A stretch of 45,889 bases of DNA from a virus, in UHGV virus genome UHGV-1375786; one strand, written 5' to 3'. This document shows, one piece after another, positions 3,543 to 45,805 of the stretch. The notes below the pieces were generated by a model. It was not told where the DNA came from. It searched no databases and saw only the letters and a program-made list of their open reading frames with translations. The translations under genes were made by a program, and so were the position numbers. Numbering within the stretch: the stretch's first letter is position 1; every line of letters starts with the position of its first letter.

Positions 3543-3637
3543 TCAGCCCTCCTTTTGTTATGTAAAAAATATACATGAATATTATGTACACGTCAACGAC
3601 AGCAAGATGACGTTCTTACTTACACATCTTTACAGTA

Positions 3638-4020
3638 TTTACCGGAGTTACCGGGTTTTTATCGGGAAGTTACCGACGCAAGTTATTGATAACTATAGAG
3701 TTACCGGAGTTACCGGATTTTTTGCATATGAGAACAGAAAAATTTTAAAAATGAGAATTTGTATCAAAATTGAATAAAATGCTTATAAATCATATATATA
3801 ATAAGAAATTAAACCCTTTTTATATATGTAAGGAGTTACCAGGTAAATCCGGTAACTCGTCTGAGAGCCTTGCTACATGCGGGTTTCAAGTTACCGGACG
3901 ACCGGTAACTCCGGTAACTTTTTAATGGTGAAAACGACATAAAAGCAACGTAAGTAATTGATTTATAATAGTTACCGGTTTTTGCACATTGAGTTACCGG
4001 ATTTTTCGAGATTCGGTAAA
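3638..4020. repeat. Iteron array: about 12 copies of AGTTACCGG / CCGGTAACT (direct and inverted, including GTTACCGG-acga-CCGGTAAC) flanking an AT-rich core
   Basis: Copies located by eye include 3646, 3668(var), 3699, 3708, 3834(var), 3849(inv), 3889, 3902(inv), 3911(inv), 3970 and 3992. Confidence 0.8.
3721..3830. other. AT tract of about 110 bp, more than 85% AT by eye (candidate DNA unwinding element)
   Basis: Sequence such as ...ttttaaaaatgagaatttgtatcaaaattgaataaaatgcttataaatcatatatataataag..., bracketed by iterons. Confidence 0.6.
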
Positions 4021-4026
4021 TTAATA

Positions 4027-4055
4027 TTGACGTAGAATCACCACTGATGTAGATT
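4027..4055 (+). promoter_or_regulatory. Candidate sigma70 promoter TTGACG-17-TAGATT for the rightward early operon. It overlaps two inverted copies of the AATCTACRTCA box
   Basis: Hexamers and spacing read directly. The first ORF starts at 4086 with an RBS GAGGGTGA. Confidence 0.4.
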
Positions 4056-4085
4056 GGACTCATCGGAACAAACGAGGGTGAAGAT

Positions 4086-4232
4086 ATGAAAATCAAAGAT
4101 CGTGAAGAATTTGAAGATGCACAGGCCATGGCGCGCATTGCAGTTAATAGTCAGAACAACAGCATTCCTGCTGATGCATTCTGGAACGCTGCAATGCAGG
4201 CTTTAGCTTCAGCGTATGGATTAAGCAAATGA
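4086..4232 (+). CDS. hypothetical small protein (48 aa)
   Basis: RBS GAGGGTG. ATGA overlap with the next ORF. Confidence 0.5.
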   Translation: MKIKDREEFEDAQAMARIAVNSQNNSIPADAFWNAAMQALASAYGLSK

Positions 4233-6621: not shown

Positions 6622-7068
6622 ATGGCTAATCCAAACCCTGTCATGAAATTTTCCTCTGAGTACCAGCCTGCTGGCAGAGGATTAAGCTACAGAAACAGGC
6701 TTATTGAGGCATTAAAGCGTTGTGGGCTTGGAGAAGAGGAGTTTCTTGACGCATTCATCAGGACTTCAATCAGGATGACGGAGGAAAACCCGACTCAGGG
6801 TGTGCAAATGCTGAAGGAAATATTCCTACGCATCAGCCCTGTGCAAAAGAGTATGGCACCTCCGGTTAATTTTAAATACCGCAAAGATGCTACTCCAGTT
6901 GAGCAGATAGAGGACGTCATTCAATCTGTTTCCAGTGGTGAGCTTCCAATCGATGTGGCGTCGCAGGTTGTGTCTATGATTAAGGTTGGCCTTGACGTGA
7001 AAGAATTAACCGAACTCGCTGCACGCCTTGAGCGACTGGAGAAATTACTGGAGCAGCAGAATGGGTGA
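6622..7068 (+). CDS. terminase small subunit (putative)
   Basis: 148 aa, directly upstream of the large terminase. C-terminal coiled coil LTELAARLERLEKLLEQQ. Confidence 0.55.
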   Translation: MANPNPVMKFSSEYQPAGRGLSYRNRLIEALKRCGLGEEEFLDAFIRTSIRMTEENPTQGVQMLKEIFLRISPVQKSMAPPVNFKYRKDATPVEQIEDVIQSVSSGELPIDVASQVVSMIKVGLDVKELTELAARLERLEKLLEQQNG

Positions 7069-7204
7069 TTCAGTTTATTATAAACAAAGATGTGATGAAG
7101 TGATTCTTCTGCGCAGCGGAGATGAGCAAGGTGTTGTGTTTGATGGGCCAATGAGTGATGAGGAGGTGGTGGCCATCCTTCAGGAGCTAACCAATGGCTC
7201 GTAA
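7061..7204 (+). CDS. hypothetical small protein (47 aa) bridging terminase small and large genes
   Basis: The ATG overlaps the TerS stop, and the stop overlaps the TerL start in the +1 frame. Confidence 0.3.
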   Translation: MGDSVYYKQRCDEVILLRSGDEQGVVFDGPMSDEEVVAILQELTNGS

Positions 7205-8618
7205 ACGTCTCTCCGCACTGGCAATAGAAAAGCTGGAAGCGCAGATTGATGACGCGATGACTGATGTTGCAGAGTCTGCCATCTTTGGTATCTGCGACAT
7301 GCAGAAAAACGTCATCAAGCGGTTAAGGATGACTGCTACTGGTGTTGATGACGTGACCAATGCAACCACTCATGCTGACCACCTGATTCCGGCAAAACTG
7401 GAGCGCCTGCTTTATCCGAAGCGTTTTAAGTTTGTCTACGGTGGCCGCGGGTCAGGGAAGACGAGAACGATTATCACTATCCTTACTGAGAGAGCAAGGT
7501 TTCGCCCTGACCGCTTTGCCTGTTTTCGTGAGATTCAGCAATCCATTGAGGATTCAAGCTATCAGGAATTGTGCGACGAAATAGCGCGCAAGGGTGAATC
7601 GTCAGAGTTTCGCGTTATCAATAACGAGATAACGCACAAGAAGACCAAAGCGAAGTTTCGCTTCAAGGGGCTGTATCGCAATCAGACAACCGTCAAGGGG
7701 TTTGCTGGCATTACCGTTGGCTGGGTTGAGGAGGCGGAGAACGTCAGCCAGACAAGCTGGGATATTCTTGTGCCTACCATCCGTGCTGCCAATTCTGAAT
7801 TGTGGTGCTCATTCAACCCCAACAAGGAGACTGACCCTACATGGAAAAACTGGATTGCTCCTTACCGCTCACAAATGGTTGATGGCATATTTGAAAATGA
7901 TGAAATTCTGATTATCGAATGTAACTATTCCGACAACCCGTGGTTCTGGGATACACCACTGCCATCCGCTATGGAGCAAATGAAGCGCGTCGATTTCGAC
8001 CGCTATATGTGGATATGGGAAGGCAAATTTAACAAACGCAGCGACGAGCAGGTCTTCGGCGGCAAATGGCGCATTGATAACTTTGAGGTCAAACCTGAAT
8101 GGCATGGCCCATATTTCGGCATGGACTTCGGGTTTTCCACGGATCCTACCGCAATGGTTGAGGTTTACATCGAAGAACTTCCCGGCGGGCGTCGCAACAT
8201 TTATATTAATCGCGAGTACGGCAAGGTGGGGCTTGAAATTACTGACACGCCAGCTGCGATGGAGCAATCATTTCCGATGGCTAAGCGCGCACGATGGTAT
8301 GCCGACTGTGCTCGTCCCGAAACCATCAGCCACATCAAGCGTTCTGGATTCGATATCCACCCGTGCACTAAATGGCCCGGTAGTGTCGAGGATGGCGTGA
8401 CGTGGCTGCGCGGCTGCGACAGCATCATCATCCATGAGCGATGCAGGGAAATGCAGAATGAAGCTGCAATGTACAGCTACAAGGTTGATAAGCTGACCGG
8501 AAACGTTCTGACTGATATTGTCGATGCATTCAACCACTACTGGGATGCGGTTCGTTACGCACTCAATGACCACATCGTCCAGCGCGGTAGCGGAATGCTA
8601 ATCCGGCGCAGGCGATAA
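7194..8618 (+). CDS. terminase large subunit
   Basis: Walker A VYGGRGSGKTRT. 474 aa, with an ATPase N-domain and a nuclease-like C-domain pattern (WVEEAENV..., acidic residues). Confidence 0.9.
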   Translation: MARKRLSALAIEKLEAQIDDAMTDVAESAIFGICDMQKNVIKRLRMTATGVDDVTNATTHADHLIPAKLERLLYPKRFKFVYGGRGSGKTRTIITILTERARFRPDRFACFREIQQSIEDSSYQELCDEIARKGESSEFRVINNEITHKKTKAKFRFKGLYRNQTTVKGFAGITVGWVEEAENVSQTSWDILVPTIRAANSELWCSFNPNKETDPTWKNWIAPYRSQMVDGIFENDEILIIECNYSDNPWFWDTPLPSAMEQMKRVDFDRYMWIWEGKFNKRSDEQVFGGKWRIDNFEVKPEWHGPYFGMDFGFSTDPTAMVEVYIEELPGGRRNIYINREYGKVGLEITDTPAAMEQSFPMAKRARWYADCARPETISHIKRSGFDIHPCTKWPGSVEDGVTWLRGCDSIIIHERCREMQNEAAMYSYKVDKLTGNVLTDIVDAFNHYWDAVRYALNDHIVQRGSGMLIRRRR

Positions 8619-8619
8619 A

Positions 8620-8648
8620 AATAAATCCCTCAATTGAGGGCTTGTGGT
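8620..8648. terminator. Palindromic terminator CCCTCAATTGAGGG, with the stronger T-run on the minus strand
   Basis: Perfect 14-bp palindrome at the end of the convergent gene pair. Confidence 0.5.
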
Positions 8649-8911
8649 TATATTTTACCTTCTTGCATCAAACCTTCAACCACCGTCATTTTGTATCTCG
8701 GCAGCCTGTAAGACTCCAGTGCTTTCTCTGCTCCGCGCTGCGATTTGTATGCCTTAATGCTGGGCACTGGAGTCACCGAGTCTTCAGCGCCGTAACCGTA
8801 ATTTGATACCTGCACTACACGAAACATACCATCAATGTTGCGCACGCATAGATTTTTGAATGCGACAAGGCCAGTTTCTTTGTTGATGTAGCGAGTGATG
8901 ATGCGTTCCAT
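8648..8911 (-). CDS. hypothetical protein (87 aa), opposite-strand moron between terminase and portal
   Basis: ORF ending at the terminator, divergent from a motif-rich regulatory region. Confidence 0.5.
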   Translation of the reverse strand: MERIITRYINKETGLVAFKNLCVRNIDGMFRVVQVSNYGYGAEDSVTPVPSIKAYKSQRGAEKALESYRLPRYKMTVVEGLMQEGKI

Positions 8912-8929
8912 AAATCCTCCTTGTTTCGT

Positions 8930-9050
8930 ATGAGTTCAATCTACATCACAGCAATATCTACGTCAACATTTATTATTGTTGTTGATAAATCTGCATCACC
9001 GCGCTTGACCAATCTACACCGAGCGCATAGTATAATCTACATCAGGCTTA
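8930..9050 (+). promoter_or_regulatory. Five tandem copies of the AATCTAC(A/G)TCA box (8933, 8955, 8987, 9008, 9036) plus TTGACC and TATAAT elements
   Basis: Copies read directly. They lie upstream of the ORF at 9065. Confidence 0.55.
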
Positions 9051-9064
9051 CCGGGGATATCACT

Positions 9065-9271
9065 ATGCGCAGCTATGCAGGATTTACACAGGAGGAAAAA
9101 GAGCAGGTTTATTCACTGGCGCGGGCTGGCGTGCCTGATGATGTGATTTGCCGTAGGTATGACATAGACGAGGATTTTCTGCTGCGCGTTCTGGATGATG
9201 TCTTCGTTAACCTGCAAGAGAAACGCGGATATAAGGGTATCTGCTGCAAGAATGATTTTTTGAGAGGTTGA
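9065..9271 (+). CDS. hypothetical protein (68 aa), possible HTH regulator
   Basis: ORF downstream of the 5x box cluster. FTQEEKEQVYSLARAGVPDDVICRRYDI is HTH-like. Confidence 0.45.
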   Translation: MRSYAGFTQEEKEQVYSLARAGVPDDVICRRYDIDEDFLLRVLDDVFVNLQEKRGYKGICCKNDFLRG

Positions 9272-9664: not shown

Positions 9665-9676
9665 TACCATGCTATA

Positions 9677-9706
9677 ATCCCATCCAACGTGATGGGATTT
9701 TTTTAT
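9677..9706 (+). terminator. Rho-independent terminator (ATCCCATCcaacgtGATGGGAT + T7)
   Basis: Hairpin plus TTTTTTTAT. Confidence 0.7.
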
Positions 9707-13799: not shown

Positions 13800-13845
13800 G
13801 TGTATCTACATCATAGCCTCGCCATCCAATCTACGTCAATACCTG
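13800..13845 (+). promoter_or_regulatory. Two direct AATCTACRTCA boxes (13803, 13831) followed by GTCAATACC and TGtGATAGAAT (extended -10-like) upstream of the lysis cassette
   Basis: Read directly. The lysis ORF starts at 13884 with an AGGAGG RBS. Confidence 0.5.
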
Positions 13846-13883
13846 TTGTGATAGAATTAATTATTATTTAAACAGGAGGCAGA

Positions 13884-17389: not shown

Positions 17390-17424
17390 ATTTACTACTC
17401 CTTCTCGAAAAACATCTTGACGTT

Positions 17425-17462
17425 TCTACATCACTTAGTCAATACTTATTGACGTAGATTGT
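17425..17462. promoter_or_regulatory. Inverted pair of boxes TTCTACATCA ... TGACGTAGATT separated by about 16 bp, with GTCAATAC in between
   Basis: Read directly. Lies between divergent operons (17389 leftward, 17489 rightward). Confidence 0.5.
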
Positions 17463-17488
17463 ACCACAACGAGAAAGGTGATGTGGAA

Positions 17489-18159: not shown

Positions 18160-18404
18160 GCGCACCACATATGCCGATGATGAATGATGAAGGATTGCTG
18201 GAATGTCCGTTCTGCGGTAGCAATGATGCTTACAGCGACAGTCAGGGAGATGATTTTTTCGTTGCCTGCGCAGAGTGTGGCAATGGAACTGACTACTGGC
18301 TATTGCTGGATGACGCCGTAAAGAAGTGGAACACCCGCAACGGGTACCTCTACACCGCAGACGACTTCAATCAGGCAGCAGAGGAGCGCGATCATGGACT
18401 ATAA
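18156..18404 (+). CDS. Lar-family restriction-alleviation-like zinc-ribbon protein
   Basis: LECPFCGS...VACAECGNGT...AVKKWNTR matches the Lar pattern recalled from memory: CPFCG...C..CG...A...WN.R. Confidence 0.55.
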   Translation: MSAPHMPMMNDEGLLECPFCGSNDAYSDSQGDDFFVACAECGNGTDYWLLLDDAVKKWNTRNGYLYTADDFNQAAEERDHGL

Positions 18405-18882
18405 ATCACAAATCATGCGCGTGATTATGATGCATCCCGGCGCAACGCGTGCATACATTGAGAGGCATTGCGGAGGAAAGCATTCAAGCACTATAACGCA
18501 TCGTCTGCATGAGATGCTCGCACTTGGATTCATTCGTCGCGAGAAGTCGGTGATTCGCGGTGGCAAGTGGCAGTATAAGTATTTCATCTCCGATGATTCT
18601 GCAGGAATTGATGATGCAATAAAGTGTCACCTGATTGATAACGCTGGCGCAGAGGTGAAAGAAATTAGCGCAGCCACTGGCATTGATTATCGCATCGTGA
18701 AAAGCCGCATACGCATTATGTTCCATAACGGCGATGTAACGCGAAGCTATGGCCACCACAAGAAGCTGTGGCGTTACTCATGGAAGGGGCAGGAAGTAAA
18801 TGTGAGCAACCTGTTTAATTCTCTTCTTCGCAGCGTAAGAGGTCGTCATGGGGAAAACAAAACGCAAGAAGCAAGAGTATGA
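18394..18882 (+). CDS. putative DNA-binding protein with two winged-helix-like repeats (162 aa)
   Basis: Two similar segments: IMMHPGATRAYIERHCGGKHSSTITHRLHEMLALGFIRRE and LIDNAGAEVKEISAATGIDYRIVKSRIRIMFHNGDV. Confidence 0.5.
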   Translation: MDYKSQIMRVIMMHPGATRAYIERHCGGKHSSTITHRLHEMLALGFIRREKSVIRGGKWQYKYFISDDSAGIDDAIKCHLIDNAGAEVKEISAATGIDYRIVKSRIRIMFHNGDVTRSYGHHKKLWRYSWKGQEVNVSNLFNSLLRSVRGRHGENKTQEARV

Positions 18883-19024
18883 ACCATTGCCTCCATGCGA
18901 AATGTCAGGAATGCCGCAGCAGGAGGATGTGATTCTAACTGAGGCAGAGTGGCGCAAGGTAGCGAGGGTGCAAATCATGTTCCGCAAACTTGCTGAGGAA
19001 GTACTAAATGAGATGGGCTATTAA
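18848..19024 (+). CDS. hypothetical small protein (58 aa), overlapping the 3' end of the previous gene
   Basis: The ATG overlaps the upstream ORF. Its stop overlaps the next start (ATGA). Confidence 0.3.
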   Translation: MGKTKRKKQEYEPLPPCEMSGMPQQEDVILTEAEWRKVARVQIMFRKLAEEVLNEMGY

Positions 19025-19391
19025 GCACAAATCTGGCAGAACTCTGTTTGCAACATCGGATGAGTTTATTGCCAATAACCGTAAAGAGATGGGCTGGGTA
19101 GTGGAGGAAGTGAAGGTGACGAGTAGAGAGCGGTTTGAAGAGTGGATTAAGGAAGAAACAGGATTTGATTTATGGCGCACGGAATACCCAATGACAGGGT
19201 GGGATGACCAGCAGTACAAATGCCATCAAACAAACCTTGCATGGATGGCATGGCAAGCATCACGAGCAGCAATTGAGATTGAATTGCCAGAGCCGTGCTC
19301 TCCAGGTGATTTCTGTATTGATATACCAGCACAAGCACACCATGAAGTTATTGAAGCAATCGAAAACGCAGGATTAAAGGTGAAAAAATGA
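19008..19391 (+). CDS. hypothetical protein (127 aa)
   Basis: ORF with coupling on both sides. Confidence 0.5.
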   Translation: MRWAIKHKSGRTLFATSDEFIANNRKEMGWVVEEVKVTSRERFEEWIKEETGFDLWRTEYPMTGWDDQQYKCHQTNLAWMAWQASRAAIEIELPEPCSPGDFCIDIPAQAHHEVIEAIENAGLKVKK

Positions 19392-24012: not shown

Positions 24013-24205
24013 TGAATTGTTTTGTGCACTTCAGGCAAAGCCACTTGCATTCCTGAATGTTAATCCCTCCGCAGTCTTGGCCAATACTCCCCTTGTATGC
24101 GACGGTAAGTTCTCCGCGCTCACCATCAATATACTCATCAGGATTTTTGGTTTCATATCCGCATCTGTCACACTTATGGATTGTTATGGTTATTTTCGCC
24201 ATCAC
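23978..24205 (-). CDS. zinc-ribbon protein (75 aa; CDRC ... CLKC)
   Basis: Two CxxC pairs. ATGA overlap with the upstream ParB-like gene. Confidence 0.5.
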   Translation of the reverse strand: MMAKITITIHKCDRCGYETKNPDEYIDGERGELTVAYKGSIGQDCGGINIQECKWLCLKCTKQFIEFMAGENNER

Positions 24206-25011
24206 ATCTTCTCCAGAATTGCCATAACCTCATGAATATCAGCAACAGGAATCTGAATAAACTCCTCATCCTCTGCTGCCACATGACCAGCTGGAAGAAT
24301 TACATGGTCGGCTGGCTTCAATAACTCAACCAGACGGTCTACTGGCTTAATCTTTTTCGATTTCAGCACCTTCGCTGTTACCTTGTCCTTGCCTTGTGCT
24401 TTAGCTTCTTCAACAGCCTCGTCGATAACTTTAACCGCATCATCGCCATGTTCGCGCGTTACTGCTACGGCATTTGCATAGCTGATTTGCCCGGCACTGA
24501 TGCGCGCTTTTACTTCCGCTGGAACATCACCCAGTGACAGATGCATTTGCACGTCAGATACCGAACGACCTACCTTCTTAGCAATTTCTTCATTAGTCCA
24601 GCCAAATCCTTTCAGTCGTGTGTAAGCCTTTGCGCGCTCAAACGGGTCAAGTTGCTTGCCCTGACTGGATGACACCATAAAGGCGATTTTGTCAGCCTCG
24701 TCGCCAGTGAAATCCTTGCACTCAATACGAACGATTGGCGCTCCACGCTCAATGGCACGCAATGCACCGAGATAGCGATGCTGACCATCAAGAATGCGGA
24801 TTCCCTTCTCGTCAGGAATAACTGTTAATGCTGGTAATGGCTGACCTGATTCCCAGCACTGCGCGAAATATTCCACATGCTGTTCGTCAGCTTCGCGGAT
24901 GTTGTATCCCGGCTCAAGATAGATTTGCTCCACTGGCACGAGATAGGTTTTGTTGACAGCGATGCCGTTACGCGTTTCTTTGTCTGAATAGATTTTGCTG
25001 AGTGTTTTCAT
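24202..25011 (-). CDS. ParB/sulfiredoxin-like nuclease-domain protein (about 269 aa)
   Basis: ILDGQHRYLGALRAIERG is a DGQHR ParB/Srx box. N-terminal ParB-like N-domain, C-terminal helical and lysine-rich region. Confidence 0.65.
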   Translation of the reverse strand: MKTLSKIYSDKETRNGIAVNKTYLVPVEQIYLEPGYNIREADEQHVEYFAQCWESGQPLPALTVIPDEKGIRILDGQHRYLGALRAIERGAPIVRIECKDFTGDEADKIAFMVSSSQGKQLDPFERAKAYTRLKGFGWTNEEIAKKVGRSVSDVQMHLSLGDVPAEVKARISAGQISYANAVAVTREHGDDAVKVIDEAVEEAKAQGKDKVTAKVLKSKKIKPVDRLVELLKPADHVILPAGHVAAEDEEFIQIPVADIHEVMAILEKM

Positions 25012-25830: not shown

Positions 25831-25858
25831 CTCATCACCTCTAACATTTATTGTTGTT

Positions 25859-25900
25859 TCTACATCACTAACTATAAACTCCACGCCAATCTACGTCAAC
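25859..25900 (+). promoter_or_regulatory. Two direct boxes (TTCTACATCAC, AATCTACGTCAAC) followed by TGcTAAAAT (extended -10-like)
   Basis: Read directly, in a divergent intergenic region. The rightward ORF starts at 25947. Confidence 0.5.
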
Positions 25901-25946
25901 TGGAATATGCTAAAATCATGCTAATCAAACAACAGGAGATTTAAAC

Positions 25947-28951: not shown

Positions 28952-29028
28952 TGGTGGACACGGACGGACTTGAACCTTCAATCAGCCGATTATGAGTCGG
29001 TTGCTTTAACCAATTAAGCTACGCGTCC
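28952..29028 (-). tRNA. tRNA-like gene with anticodon CAU (Met or Ile2-type), 77 nt including an encoded 3' CCA
   Basis: Cloverleaf by eye: acceptor GGACGCG/CGTGTCC (one G-U), D arm GCTT-AATTGGTTA-AAGC, anticodon loop CTCATAA, T loop GTTCAAGTC, encoded CCA. One mismatch each in the anticodon and T stems. Confidence 0.55.
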
Positions 29029-29345: not shown

Positions 29346-29403
29346 TAATTGAAGGATTGGATGTAATTAAATGAAATCATGGAACCAATCTCTGTTAAAT
29401 CCT

Positions 29404-29450
29404 AATCTACACCACAAAATAATCACTGTCAACACCTGTGATATAATCAC
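29404..29450 (+). promoter_or_regulatory. Tail-operon promoter: box AATCTACACCAC ... GTCAACACC ... TGaTATAAT (perfect extended -10)
   Basis: Read directly. The major tail gene starts at 29484 with a GGAGA RBS. Confidence 0.6.
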
Positions 29451-29483
29451 CACGTTAGCAGCTAACACAATTCGGAGATCGAA

Positions 29484-30791: not shown

Positions 30792-31085
30792 TTACATGCC
30801 GTTCTTTTCGCACAAAGCAACAGATACATCACGCAATTGCTCTTTAGTCATATCCTTGCGTGCATAAACCATTTCTACGATAGCAAGTCCGATTATTTCT
30901 GCTGATTCGTTGTTTTTTGCTGAGCCTTTTACTACCACCTCGGCAAGATTCTTGCTGATACCGTTATCGCGAGCATCGGCAGTGTTCATGGCGATTTCCC
31001 CGATGTTTTTGCAAACCTCAGAGGTTGCGCTTACCGCAAAGGAGGAAGTAAATAGCACTGATGCAATCAACGTTTTAATTTTCAT
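30792..31085 (-). CDS. secreted/periplasmic protein with signal peptide (97 aa)
   Basis: N-terminal MKIKTLIASVLFTSSFAVSA is a signal peptide. Confidence 0.5.
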   Translation of the reverse strand: MKIKTLIASVLFTSSFAVSATSEVCKNIGEIAMNTADARDNGISKNLAEVVVKGSAKNNESAEIIGLAIVEMVYARKDMTKEQLRDVSVALCEKNGM

Positions 31086-31127
31086 AACTCACCTCATTTA
31101 TTCATCACTCGTTTCGATGACTTGAAT

Positions 31128-31180
31128 CTACATCACCACCTCACAGGTGTCAACACCACTGAGATGATATAATCAACATC
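31128..31180 (+). promoter_or_regulatory. Promoter: box AATCTACATCACC ... GTCAACACC ... TGaTATAAT, for the chaperone/TMP operon
   Basis: Same tripartite arrangement as at 29404. Confidence 0.55.
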
Positions 31181-31193
31181 AGTCAAATTCAGG

Positions 31194-34252: not shown

Positions 34253-38053
<3,801 letters not shown>

Positions 38054-38092
38054 TACAATATACATCAAATTCACAAAGGAGCATTTATTATA

Positions 38093-42261: not shown

Positions 42262-42298
42262 TGTTAACCTCACTCATCATCACGTAAATGAATCTACA

Positions 42299-42733
42299 TC
42301 AATCTATATCTGAAAGCAAGCCAAAATAGAAAAGTGTGGCTTTTTTTAGTTCATCAAGTCCATAAGCGATGGCGGCATAATGACCAAGCCTGCACATCTC
42401 AGTTAGCACAGCCGATTGATCCTTGCTCACTCTGCTTTTGCTTTTATCTCGGCGCTTTGTCTCAATCATTCCGCAGCTGTGCTTCACTCCCGGCGTCATT
42501 ATCACATTATCGCCTATCCCGGACTTAACTCCCATCTTTTGGCGCTTCAGTACGAACTGGATGCGGCTGGACGTACCTGTTTCATTCGGGACGTGAAACC
42601 ATAGCACGTCAGGGAATCTGCTTTGCATCCATGTGCCGTAACCCATCTGTTCAGTCTCCTCTTTCGGACACTCCCCACGATAACCGCTATCAAATACCCA
42701 TATACCGCTATCAAGCTGCTTCACTTTGCTCAC
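42299..42733 (-). CDS. VRR-NUC domain nuclease
   Basis: GIGDNVIMTPG...GMIETKR...SKDQ fits the PD-(D/E)xK ... Q pattern. Confidence 0.6.
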   Translation of the reverse strand: MSKVKQLDSGIWVFDSGYRGECPKEETEQMGYGTWMQSRFPDVLWFHVPNETGTSSRIQFVLKRQKMGVKSGIGDNVIMTPGVKHSCGMIETKRRDKSKSRVSKDQSAVLTEMCRLGHYAAIAYGLDELKKATLFYFGLLSDID

Positions 42734-45733: not shown

Positions 45734-45760
45734 TGCAAGTAACGATTGATTGTTTCATGT
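45705..45760. repeat. 20-bp tandem direct repeat GTAACGATTAATTGTTTCAT / GTAACGATTGATTGTTTCAT spanning the HNH start codon
   Basis: Read directly. One mismatch, 5-bp spacer. Confidence 0.5.
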
Positions 45761-45805
45761 GAGTAAATTACAATGATTCTACATCATCGTCAACAGGAAG
45801 ATTTT

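Follow-up and report, generated by a model that had tools for sequence, protein, structure and literature searches.

In Cluster A mycobacteriophages, the repressors exemplified by L5 gp71 and the repressor of TipsytheTRex act on operators and stoperators, short asymmetric sites that are present in more than 20 intergenic, strand-biased copies, and the stoperator repressor binds as a monomer through two DNA-binding domains (PMC9283540). Here we describe a box of 11 base pairs (bp), AATCTACRTCA (R, A or G), that recurs throughout the viral genome UHGV-1375786, a stretch of 45,889 nucleotides (nt) that was analysed over its full length and is referred to below as the window. Five copies of the box are clustered at positions 8930–9050, the focal region of this study. 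The MotA box of phage T4, TGCTTtA, is unlike this box in sequence. The arrangement and conservation of the copies suggest that the box is most likely a genome-wide switch site located within nearly all early-type promoters and not a T4-style activator box.

Sequence, distribution and conservation of the box

The box is strongly over-represented in the window. Eight exact copies are present against 0.05 expected from shuffled sequences, and allowing up to one mismatch gives 18 copies against 1.7 expected. Its core, TCTACRTCA, occurs exactly 15 times, with 14 of these occurrences in intergenic DNA, which makes up 7.5% of the window, and it ranked second in an unbiased 9-mer enrichment analysis, behind an unrelated origin-type repeat. 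The 11-mers start at 4028 and 4045 (both on the − strand), 8938, 8955, 8988, 9011, 9034, 13803, 13828, 17423, 17450 (− strand), 25857, 25888, 29404, 31125, 42291 and 45776, and weak copies lie at 31171 and 38057. These positions agree to about 5 nt with those listed in the original prediction, whose description of a real, phage-specific and mostly intergenic element is borne out. The consensus over 182 distinct sites is WW-TCTAC-R-TCA, with the G variant usually followed by A-Y-A. The box is non-palindromic and asymmetric, and 11 of the 15 cores lie on the strand of the structural genes.

The window represents an almost complete 45.9-kilobase (kb) genome of a virulent siphovirus. According to our gene calls and the annotation of its relatives, the genes are laid out in many short blocks of alternating orientation, with those for terminase, portal, lysis, capsid, connector and tail on the + strand and those for replication, recombination, the ParB-like protein, RusA and many small proteins on the − strand. 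Boxes are present at all seven divergent, promoter-bearing junctions and at none of the seven convergent, terminator junctions, five of which carry a terminator-like hairpin. Three co-directional gaps have a box as well, at 29404, 38057 (a weak copy) and 42291. The claim that the box marks nearly every operon boundary thus holds for the divergent junctions and these three gaps and fails for the convergent junctions.

Over shared parts, the window is ~89–91% identical to Escherichia phages swi2, C1 and Bas77-80, to Shigella phage DS8 and to Salmonella phages SeSz-2 and Vi II-E1. Relatives are classified under Macdonaldcampvirus, Swiduovirus, Segzyvirus and Skatevirus. These phages form a single cluster adjoining Roufvirus in the view of the BASEL authors, and the group is described as one of lytic small siphoviruses (PMC11990801). 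The annotation of six relatives includes neither an integrase nor a repressor. Our literature searches returned no report of the box motif in this phage group and nothing on the transcription programme of Skatevirus, Macdonaldcampvirus or Roufvirus-type phages.

In four complete relatives whose genes were called in the same way as those of the window, exact cores are intergenic in 14 of 14 cases in swi2, 10 of 10 in Vi II-E1, 13 of 13 in Segz_1 and 9 of 10 in Klebsiella phage KpV2811. Six phages beyond these four likewise show enrichment of the box at orthologous positions. Exact cores number 11 in pYD38-A, 10 in ZCKP8, 11 in Skate, 14 in CHRF_10023.1 (at orthologous places) and 8 within 20 kb of the metagenomic relative L050, a partial contig of 24.6 kb. 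The motif scan thus returned strong enrichment and orthologous positions in every relative checked. The sequence of the box is invariant in all of them, including the divergent KpV2811, ZCKP8, pYD38-A and L050, while their proteins are 35–80% identical to those of the window, and strong purifying selection must therefore act on the box. Scanning IMG/VR with a two-box pattern retrieved 37 contigs of 38–49 kb and two shorter fragments, consistent with membership of this one phage group. The temperate Erwinia phage EhrS_59, which has the structural module and the ParB-like gene in common with the window phage and carries one long late operon, has no box at all.

Box-bearing phages are reported from Salmonella, E. 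coli, Klebsiella and 'Vibrio', and this invariance across hosts is what a site bound by a host protein, for instance IHF or a different regulator of enterobacteria, would show. The box even opens with AATC, which resembles the IHF core WATCAA. The original prediction had singled out such a host site as a way in which its proposal could fail, and here the match breaks down: the box does not fit WATCAANNNNTTR, having the T of the invariant TCTAC where an A is demanded and no TTR at the right distance, and the two-box scan found the motif only in this phage group. To our knowledge, no E. coli regulator has a consensus that fits both the A and the G variant. We therefore regard recognition by a host factor as extremely unlikely.

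Three other roles were considered and rejected. The box does not represent replication-origin iterons: a separate repeat, (A/G)GTTACCGG, fills 3543–4085, and the box is constant in the group. This 543-bp gene-free divergent region contains at least nine copies of (A/G)GTTACCGG in both orientations, flanking a very AT-rich core near 3735–3830, and by its sequence looks like a replication origin with iterons. The same repeat is enriched in swi2, which also has an adjacent gene for a helicase/primase-like protein of 542 amino acids (aa); in Vi II-E1, whose helicase and annotated repeats differ, it did not appear among the enriched 9-mers, and it was not found in EhrS_59. An RNA element was rejected on the grounds that the only Rfam match is a tRNA, that the fold z-score of 8925–9064 is −0.6 and that most boxes, by position, would not be fully transcribed from the predicted starts. 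A packaging (pac/cos) site does not agree with 15 dispersed copies.

Predicted promoters in and around the boxes

The relation of the box to promoters is apparent from its opposite strand. The reverse complement of AATCTACGTCAA consists of TTGACG, a sigma-70 −35 hexamer close to consensus, followed directly by TAGATT, which resembles a −10 hexamer; more generally, the opposite strand of a box reads TTGAYG fused to TAGATT. In a position-weight scan, the best-scoring sigma-70-type promoter was overlapped by boxes at its −35, spacer, −10 or +1 in seven of the nine box regions. This best site is on the strand opposite to the box in five of the nine (lysis, connector, major-tail, tail and exonuclease), and the origin-side pair combines − strand boxes with a rightward promoter. 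Judged by sequence only, sigma-70 hexamers spaced 16–18 nt apart lie opposite the box at six loci and on the same strand at three. The combination TTGACR-N17-TAGATT occurs four times in the window, compared with 0.01 expected, and all four occurrences are built from boxes; these two-box promoters face away from the structural genes.

Two designs can be distinguished among the predicted promoters. In the first, a G-type box covers the −35 (−34 to −26) and an A-type box 17 nt further on covers the −10 (−17 to −9), so that the box lies on the opposite strand of the promoter whose −35 or −10 it supplies. In the second, box and promoter share a strand, and the box immediately follows the −35, the −10 or both, as at the four predicted promoters at 9005–9033, 17417–17446, 17458–17466 (leftward) and upstream of the primase gene. 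The mixed orientation that the original prediction took as a sign of a protein operator is thus confirmed, and the positions of the boxes vary relative to the promoter elements.

Both designs occur in the focal region, where back-to-back promoters ~110 bp apart each have two boxes in their core and a further box lies between them. Box 1 (AATCTACATCA, 8938–8948, + strand) and box 2 (TATCTACGTCAA, 8955–8966, + strand) are spaced 17 nt start-to-start. Their reverse complements supply the −10, TAGATT (8943–8938), and the −35, TTGACG (8966–8961), of a leftward promoter, TTGACG-17-TAGATT (8966–8938, − strand), before the gene at 8648–8911. Box 3 (AATCTGCATCA, 8988–8998, + strand), with one mismatch, lies between the two promoters and is kept in swi2, Vi II-E1 and Segz_1. 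A predicted rightward sigma-70-type promoter, TTGACC-17-TAGTAT (9005–9033, + strand), with a predicted transcription start near 9040, precedes the operon led by a gene for a 68-aa protein. Box 4 (AATCTACACCG, 9011–9021, + strand), a conserved variant with two mismatches, occupies the spacer of this promoter immediately 3′ of the −35, and box 5 (AATCTACATCA, 9034–9044, + strand) lies immediately 3′ of the −10 and spans about −6 to +5. The five tandem copies noted originally are accordingly two exact copies, two with one mismatch and one conserved two-mismatch variant. The hexamers of the rightward promoter are conserved in four genomes, and the KpV2811 equivalent is TTGACA-17-CATCAT. The best sites on the two strands tie at a score of 10.4, and a second, independent consensus scan returned both promoters of the focal region together with a terminator at 9676–9699. 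With a gene for a small helix-turn-helix (HTH)-like protein next to it, the focal region is the clearest case of the mechanism proposed below.

The remaining two-box promoters follow the first design. TTGACG-17-TAGATT at 4027–4055 (+ strand), made of the − strand boxes at 4028–4038 and 4045–4055, heads the block of small genes that begins at 4086 and is kept in five genomes. At 29404–29432 (− strand), a TTGACA-17-TAGATT promoter has its −10 within the variant box AATCTACACCA (29404–29414, + strand) and its −35 in the element GTCAACACC, and it faces tRNA-Met (28952–29028, − strand). The tRNA-Met gene is on the strand opposite to its neighbours, and this promoter, ~370 nt upstream, is the only good one that faces it. 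The second TTGACA-17-TAGATT promoter (31125–31153, − strand) has its −10 within the box at 31125–31135 (+ strand) and its −35 again in GTCAACACC; it precedes the gene at 30792–31085 and is retained in KpV2811 with an 18-nt spacer. This explains the second conserved element, GTCAAYACC, that the original prediction placed downstream of the box: it is the −35 (TTGACA) of these two opposite-strand promoters at 29404 and 31125. As an independent element it was rejected, with four copies of GTCAAYAC found against 2.4 expected, and at 13835 and 17438, two of its four sites, it coincides with the 3′ terminus of a G-type box that is either full or degenerate.

At the lysis junction, the + strand boxes at 13803 and 13828 (13803–13838) give a leftward TTGACG-18-TATGAT on the − strand, and at the connector junction those at 25857 and 25888 (25857–25898, + strand) give a leftward TTGACG-17-TATAGT with boxes at −35 and +1. 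Two interleaved promoters share the next region: a rightward TTGACG-18-AATACT (17417–17446, + strand) with the box at 17423 in its spacer, and a leftward TGGTACAAT (17466–17458, − strand) with the − strand box at 17450 fused at +1. Within the leftward replication/recombination operon, the box at 42291–42301 (+ strand) provides, as its reverse complement, the −10 of a predicted internal TTGCTT-17-TAGATT promoter that precedes the exonuclease VIII gene. The primase promoter, TTGATT-17-TACAAT-GA followed by the box (45746–45786, + strand), carries its box (45776–45786) at about −3 to +6. In alignments of five genomes, the hexamers and their spacing are kept as far as KpV2811 and the spacers are scrambled, which is the footprint expected of real promoters.

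Because the box contains both hexamers in reverse complement, and because four exact TTGACR-N17-TAGATT promoters are made of boxes, it could be no more than the shared core of the phage's sigma-70 promoters (−35 TTGACG, −10 TAGATT and their context) with no dedicated binder, its similarity arising from cassette duplication or from tuning to the same strength. In line with this, three 5′ leaders downstream share extra similarity by eye, the origin-side promoter of KpV2811 has a plain TATAGT −10 in place of the second box, and the invariance of the box across hosts parallels that of sigma-70. However, conservation extends beyond the hexamers. The invariant core TCTAC-R-TCA lacks two hexamer bases, the important T that opens the −35 and the T that closes the −10, and the flanking WW is AA at every box that acts as a −10. 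Among five paralogous TAGATT promoters, the five bases that precede the −10 (TGATG) show 92% identity despite having no known role for sigma-70, and the non-consensus −10 is 100% identical, whereas the mid-spacer (23%) is at chance level and the sequence 3′ of the −10 (31–35%) is slightly above it. In the 9005–9033 and primase promoters, the same-strand boxes that occupy the spacer or +1 are conserved and yet have no role as hexamers. Finally, a leftward promoter at 3568–3596 (− strand), TTGACG-17-TATATT, which precedes the helicase/primase block and whose score of 12.9 is exceeded only by the two TTGACA-17-TAGATT promoters at 13.0, keeps its hexamers and the 17-nt two-box module although its two boxes, TATACATGA and TACACGTCA, are both degenerate; this promoter may escape control through the box. 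Since bases outside the hexamers are conserved and 3568–3596 keeps good hexamers with degenerate boxes, a separate binding protein is indicated, and a purely promoter-core origin of the box appears unlikely.

Extended −10 elements of the form TGNTANAAT constitute a second set of predicted promoters. They are not enriched overall (11 found, 8.4 expected), but 10 of the 11 are on the + strand, that of the structural genes, and 8 of the 11 lie just upstream of late genes, starting at 9670 (portal), 13849 (lysis), 20012 (scaffold), 25908 (connector), 29439 (major tail), 31165 (tail), 35472 (tail gene at 35567) and 38051 (tailspike). No recognisable −35 was found at these extended −10 late promoters, and by its sequence the set looks like a late promoter class that dispenses with this element. 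At the portal gene, the extended −10 TGCTATAAT (9670–9678) overlaps the 5′ arm of the terminator hairpin (9676–9699 plus a T run) that precedes the gene. Transcripts from the 9005–9033 promoter would end at this hairpin, and those begun at the 9670–9678 −10 would be without its 5′ arm and would read into portal; a terminator is annotated at the equivalent place before portal in Skate.

A phage activator that binds the box and replaces the −35 at these late promoters, as MotA does in T4, was the comparison made in the original prediction. Two promoters support it. The lysis promoter, with its extended −10 TGATAGAAT at 13849–13857 (+ strand), has the box at 13828 over −34 to −26, and the connector promoter, with TGCTAAAAT at 25908–25916 (+ strand), has the box at 25888 over −33 to −25; in both, the box is 12–13 nt from TGnTAnAAT, there is no −35, and the geometry is common to five genomes including KpV2811. 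The remaining six of the eight late extended −10 promoters lack it. At the major-tail and tail promoters the box is further upstream (−48 to −40 and −53 to −45), and its distance to the −10 varies from 22 to 32 nt, being 27 nt in the window and 23 nt in KpV2811 for the former and 32 and 22 nt for the latter. No box is present at the portal, scaffold and 35567 promoters, three of the eight. A weak box, AATCAACATCA, is fused to the extended −10 TGATATAAT of the tail operon (31165–31181, + strand) at about −7 to +2, and at the tailspike promoter (38051–38067, + strand) the only copy is a weak box, AATATACATCA, fused to TGATACAAT at about +1. Moreover, the lysis and connector boxes double as the −35 of a strong promoter on the opposite strand, and many boxes occupy the spacer or +1 of −35-bearing promoters, as repressor sites typically do. 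Neither MotA nor AsiA appears among the product names of the annotated Bas80, swi2, KpV2811 and Skate, and neither family was found among 20 window proteins scanned against Pfam, 10 of which were also scanned against PHROGs. The activator comparison therefore fits the lysis and connector promoters and not the other six, and as a general account of the box we consider it improbable.

At the lysis, connector, major-tail and tail junctions, a box-bearing promoter and a late extended −10 promoter are arranged back-to-back (13803–13864, 25857–25923, 29397–29454 and 31118–31180). The predicted starts of these four pairs are 57–62 bp apart, and the two −35 regions therefore overlap; at this distance two polymerases could hardly bind simultaneously. 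In swi2, Vi II-E1 and Segz_1, the distal box of the lysis junction (13803–13813 in the window) has the opposite orientation to its counterparts in the window and KpV2811, and it remains at the same position over the −10/+1 of the leftward promoter. A box that is inverted and still overlaps the promoter fits occlusion by a bound protein.

From this layout and its conservation we infer protein binding, a phage-encoded binder, early and late timing, and competition between promoters. A binder made early by the phage would occupy the boxes and turn down the early promoters, including that of its own operon. At the four junctions where early promoters stand back-to-back with the late extended −10 promoters for lysis, connector, major tail and tail, blocking the early promoter would free the late one, or the bound protein would activate it directly where the box is at about −30. 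We give roughly even weight to this proposal, in which the box is an asymmetric operator through which an early phage protein shuts the early promoters and frees or helps the overlapping late ones. The stricter version, that one small phage protein silences about a dozen early promoters and activates the late ones purely by relieved competition, is tentative and in our judgement rather doubtful. If it were true, it would constitute an activator-free early-to-late switch, recurring at each divergent junction in the genome of a virulent siphovirus of enterobacteria.

Candidate binding proteins

The two candidate binders named in the original prediction both exist and are of HTH type by structure prediction. 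The first is the 68-aa three-helix HTH-like protein encoded at 9065–9271 (+ strand), always the first gene after the densest box cluster. Its predicted fold has a predicted local distance difference test (pLDDT) score of 82, and a fold search returned no significant structural match (best E-value 0.25). It is the most universal candidate, present in 206 records compared with 207 records that have a portal at least 60% identical, and was not found outside the group as judged by organism name. As a matter of speculation, it could instead be a polymerase-binding factor.

The second candidate is a basic 162-aa protein encoded at 18394–18882 (+ strand) and annotated as 'MarR family' in relatives. 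It is predicted to consist of two tandem winged helix-turn-helix (wHTH) domains and a C-terminal helix (pLDDT 80), and its structural matches are limited to generic tandem winged-helix and MarR proteins, with no specific functional analogue. Its identity drops to 37% in Klebsiella phages, and residues Y99, K103, R105 and R107 of the second recognition helix, together with aromatic residues of the wing, are invariant or almost so in 24 sequences. In the predicted model, a single polypeptide carrying two DNA-reading heads would be well matched to a site without symmetry. In L050, the region at 18342–19345, after a Lar-like gene, encodes a 100-aa protein (Pfam Phage_phiTE_015) and a 111-aa protein in the place of the wHTH protein.

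A third protein, the ParB/KorB-like HTH protein encoded at 24202–25011 (− strand), would make the boxes sites of a genome organiser or global repressor. Its conservation (82–99% identity) ranks among the highest in the group, its HTH is identical in the window, KpV2811 and pYD38-A, and KorB sites are likewise variably placed in many promoters. The box, however, is not palindromic, unlike ParB and KorB sites. Two natural genomes also separate the gene from the box. In the region 1354–2490 of the Salmonella phage isolate CHRF_10023.1, the ParB-like gene is replaced by an HNH endonuclease that leaves a 33-aa C-terminal remnant, and 14 exact boxes are still present; EhrS_59, in turn, has a homologue that is 42–46% identical with a similar recognition helix and no boxes. 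We thus consider the ParB/KorB-like protein the least likely binder, and a ParB-type role for the boxes very unlikely. In CHRF_10023.1 the connector boxes, at 2299 and 2330, are flanked by the HNH gene and the ParB remnant and lie ~1 kb from the connector genes.

Several points weigh against the proposed switch as a whole. All of the promoters are consensus-based predictions, and the early or late class of the gene blocks derives from gene function only. The searched literature contains neither binding data nor a transcription start map for any member of the group. As the box is invariant in every relative, there is no covariation of box and protein to compare, and this invariance could reflect the invariant specificity of host sigma-70. 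With respect to the candidates, the third helix of the 68-aa protein is acidic, which is atypical of DNA recognition, and the gene for the 162-aa wHTH protein is not at its usual position in the box-bearing L050, a partial contig.

Elsewhere in the window, in the region of 6775–7068 and 7194–8618, the likely small-terminase gene has two alleles across the group; the window allele is 99–100% identical to those of Vi II-E1 and KpV2811 and about 51–54% identical to those of swi2 and Segz_1, and mosaic exchange is therefore indicated. Several HNH homing endonuclease genes also vary among the relatives.

Comparison with described systems

Phages of the Skatevirus, Macdonaldcampvirus and Roufvirus types are common therapy and biocontrol candidates for Salmonella, E. 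coli and Klebsiella. An invariant box at seven divergent junctions and in three further gaps offers a handle on the transcription programme of the group and a ready marker for promoter annotation in more than 200 deposited genomes. A switch by competition, if true, would be a compact form of temporal control that uses neither an activator nor a phage RNA polymerase and would be useful in phage engineering.

Among described systems, MotA/AsiA of T4 resembles the lysis and connector promoters, where a 9-bp box stands near −30 instead of a −35 and is combined with a TG-extended −10. The geometry is missing at six of the eight late-type promoters, most boxes overlap promoters with a good −35, and neither a MotA nor an AsiA homologue is annotated in the relatives. 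The KorB/KorA system of IncP plasmids shares with the window the use of one operator at many promoters in variable positions and the presence of a ParB-family protein; KorB sites, however, are 13-bp palindromes, and the ParB-like gene is dispensable for retention of the box, as CHRF_10023.1 shows. Control by p4 in phi29 and by CI/Cro at lambda OR similarly uses a repeated operator between and inside back-to-back promoters, which allows a single protein to lower transcription in one direction and raise it in the other. The focal region at 8930–9050, with two promoters and a small HTH-like gene first in the operon, is reminiscent of a Cro-type layout under autoregulation. The phi29 and lambda operators are dyad-symmetric and confined to one locus, whereas the box is asymmetric and distributed over about eight loci.

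On this comparison, the box comes closest in its apparent mode of action to Cluster A mycobacteriophage operators and stoperators, without being a member of that system. Cluster A phages are temperate and their binder is an immunity repressor, whereas no integrase or repressor is annotated in the relatives of the window phage; in addition, the boxes lie on promoter hexamers, with a single operon-internal site (42291), and not between the genes of an operon, and they face either way with respect to the promoter that they overlap, whereas stoperators depend on orientation. What the two have in common is an asymmetric site in many copies, located in promoters and short intergenic gaps with a strong strand bias, and the tandem-wHTH candidate, if its predicted structure is correct, could bind this site in a similar way, as a two-domain monomer.

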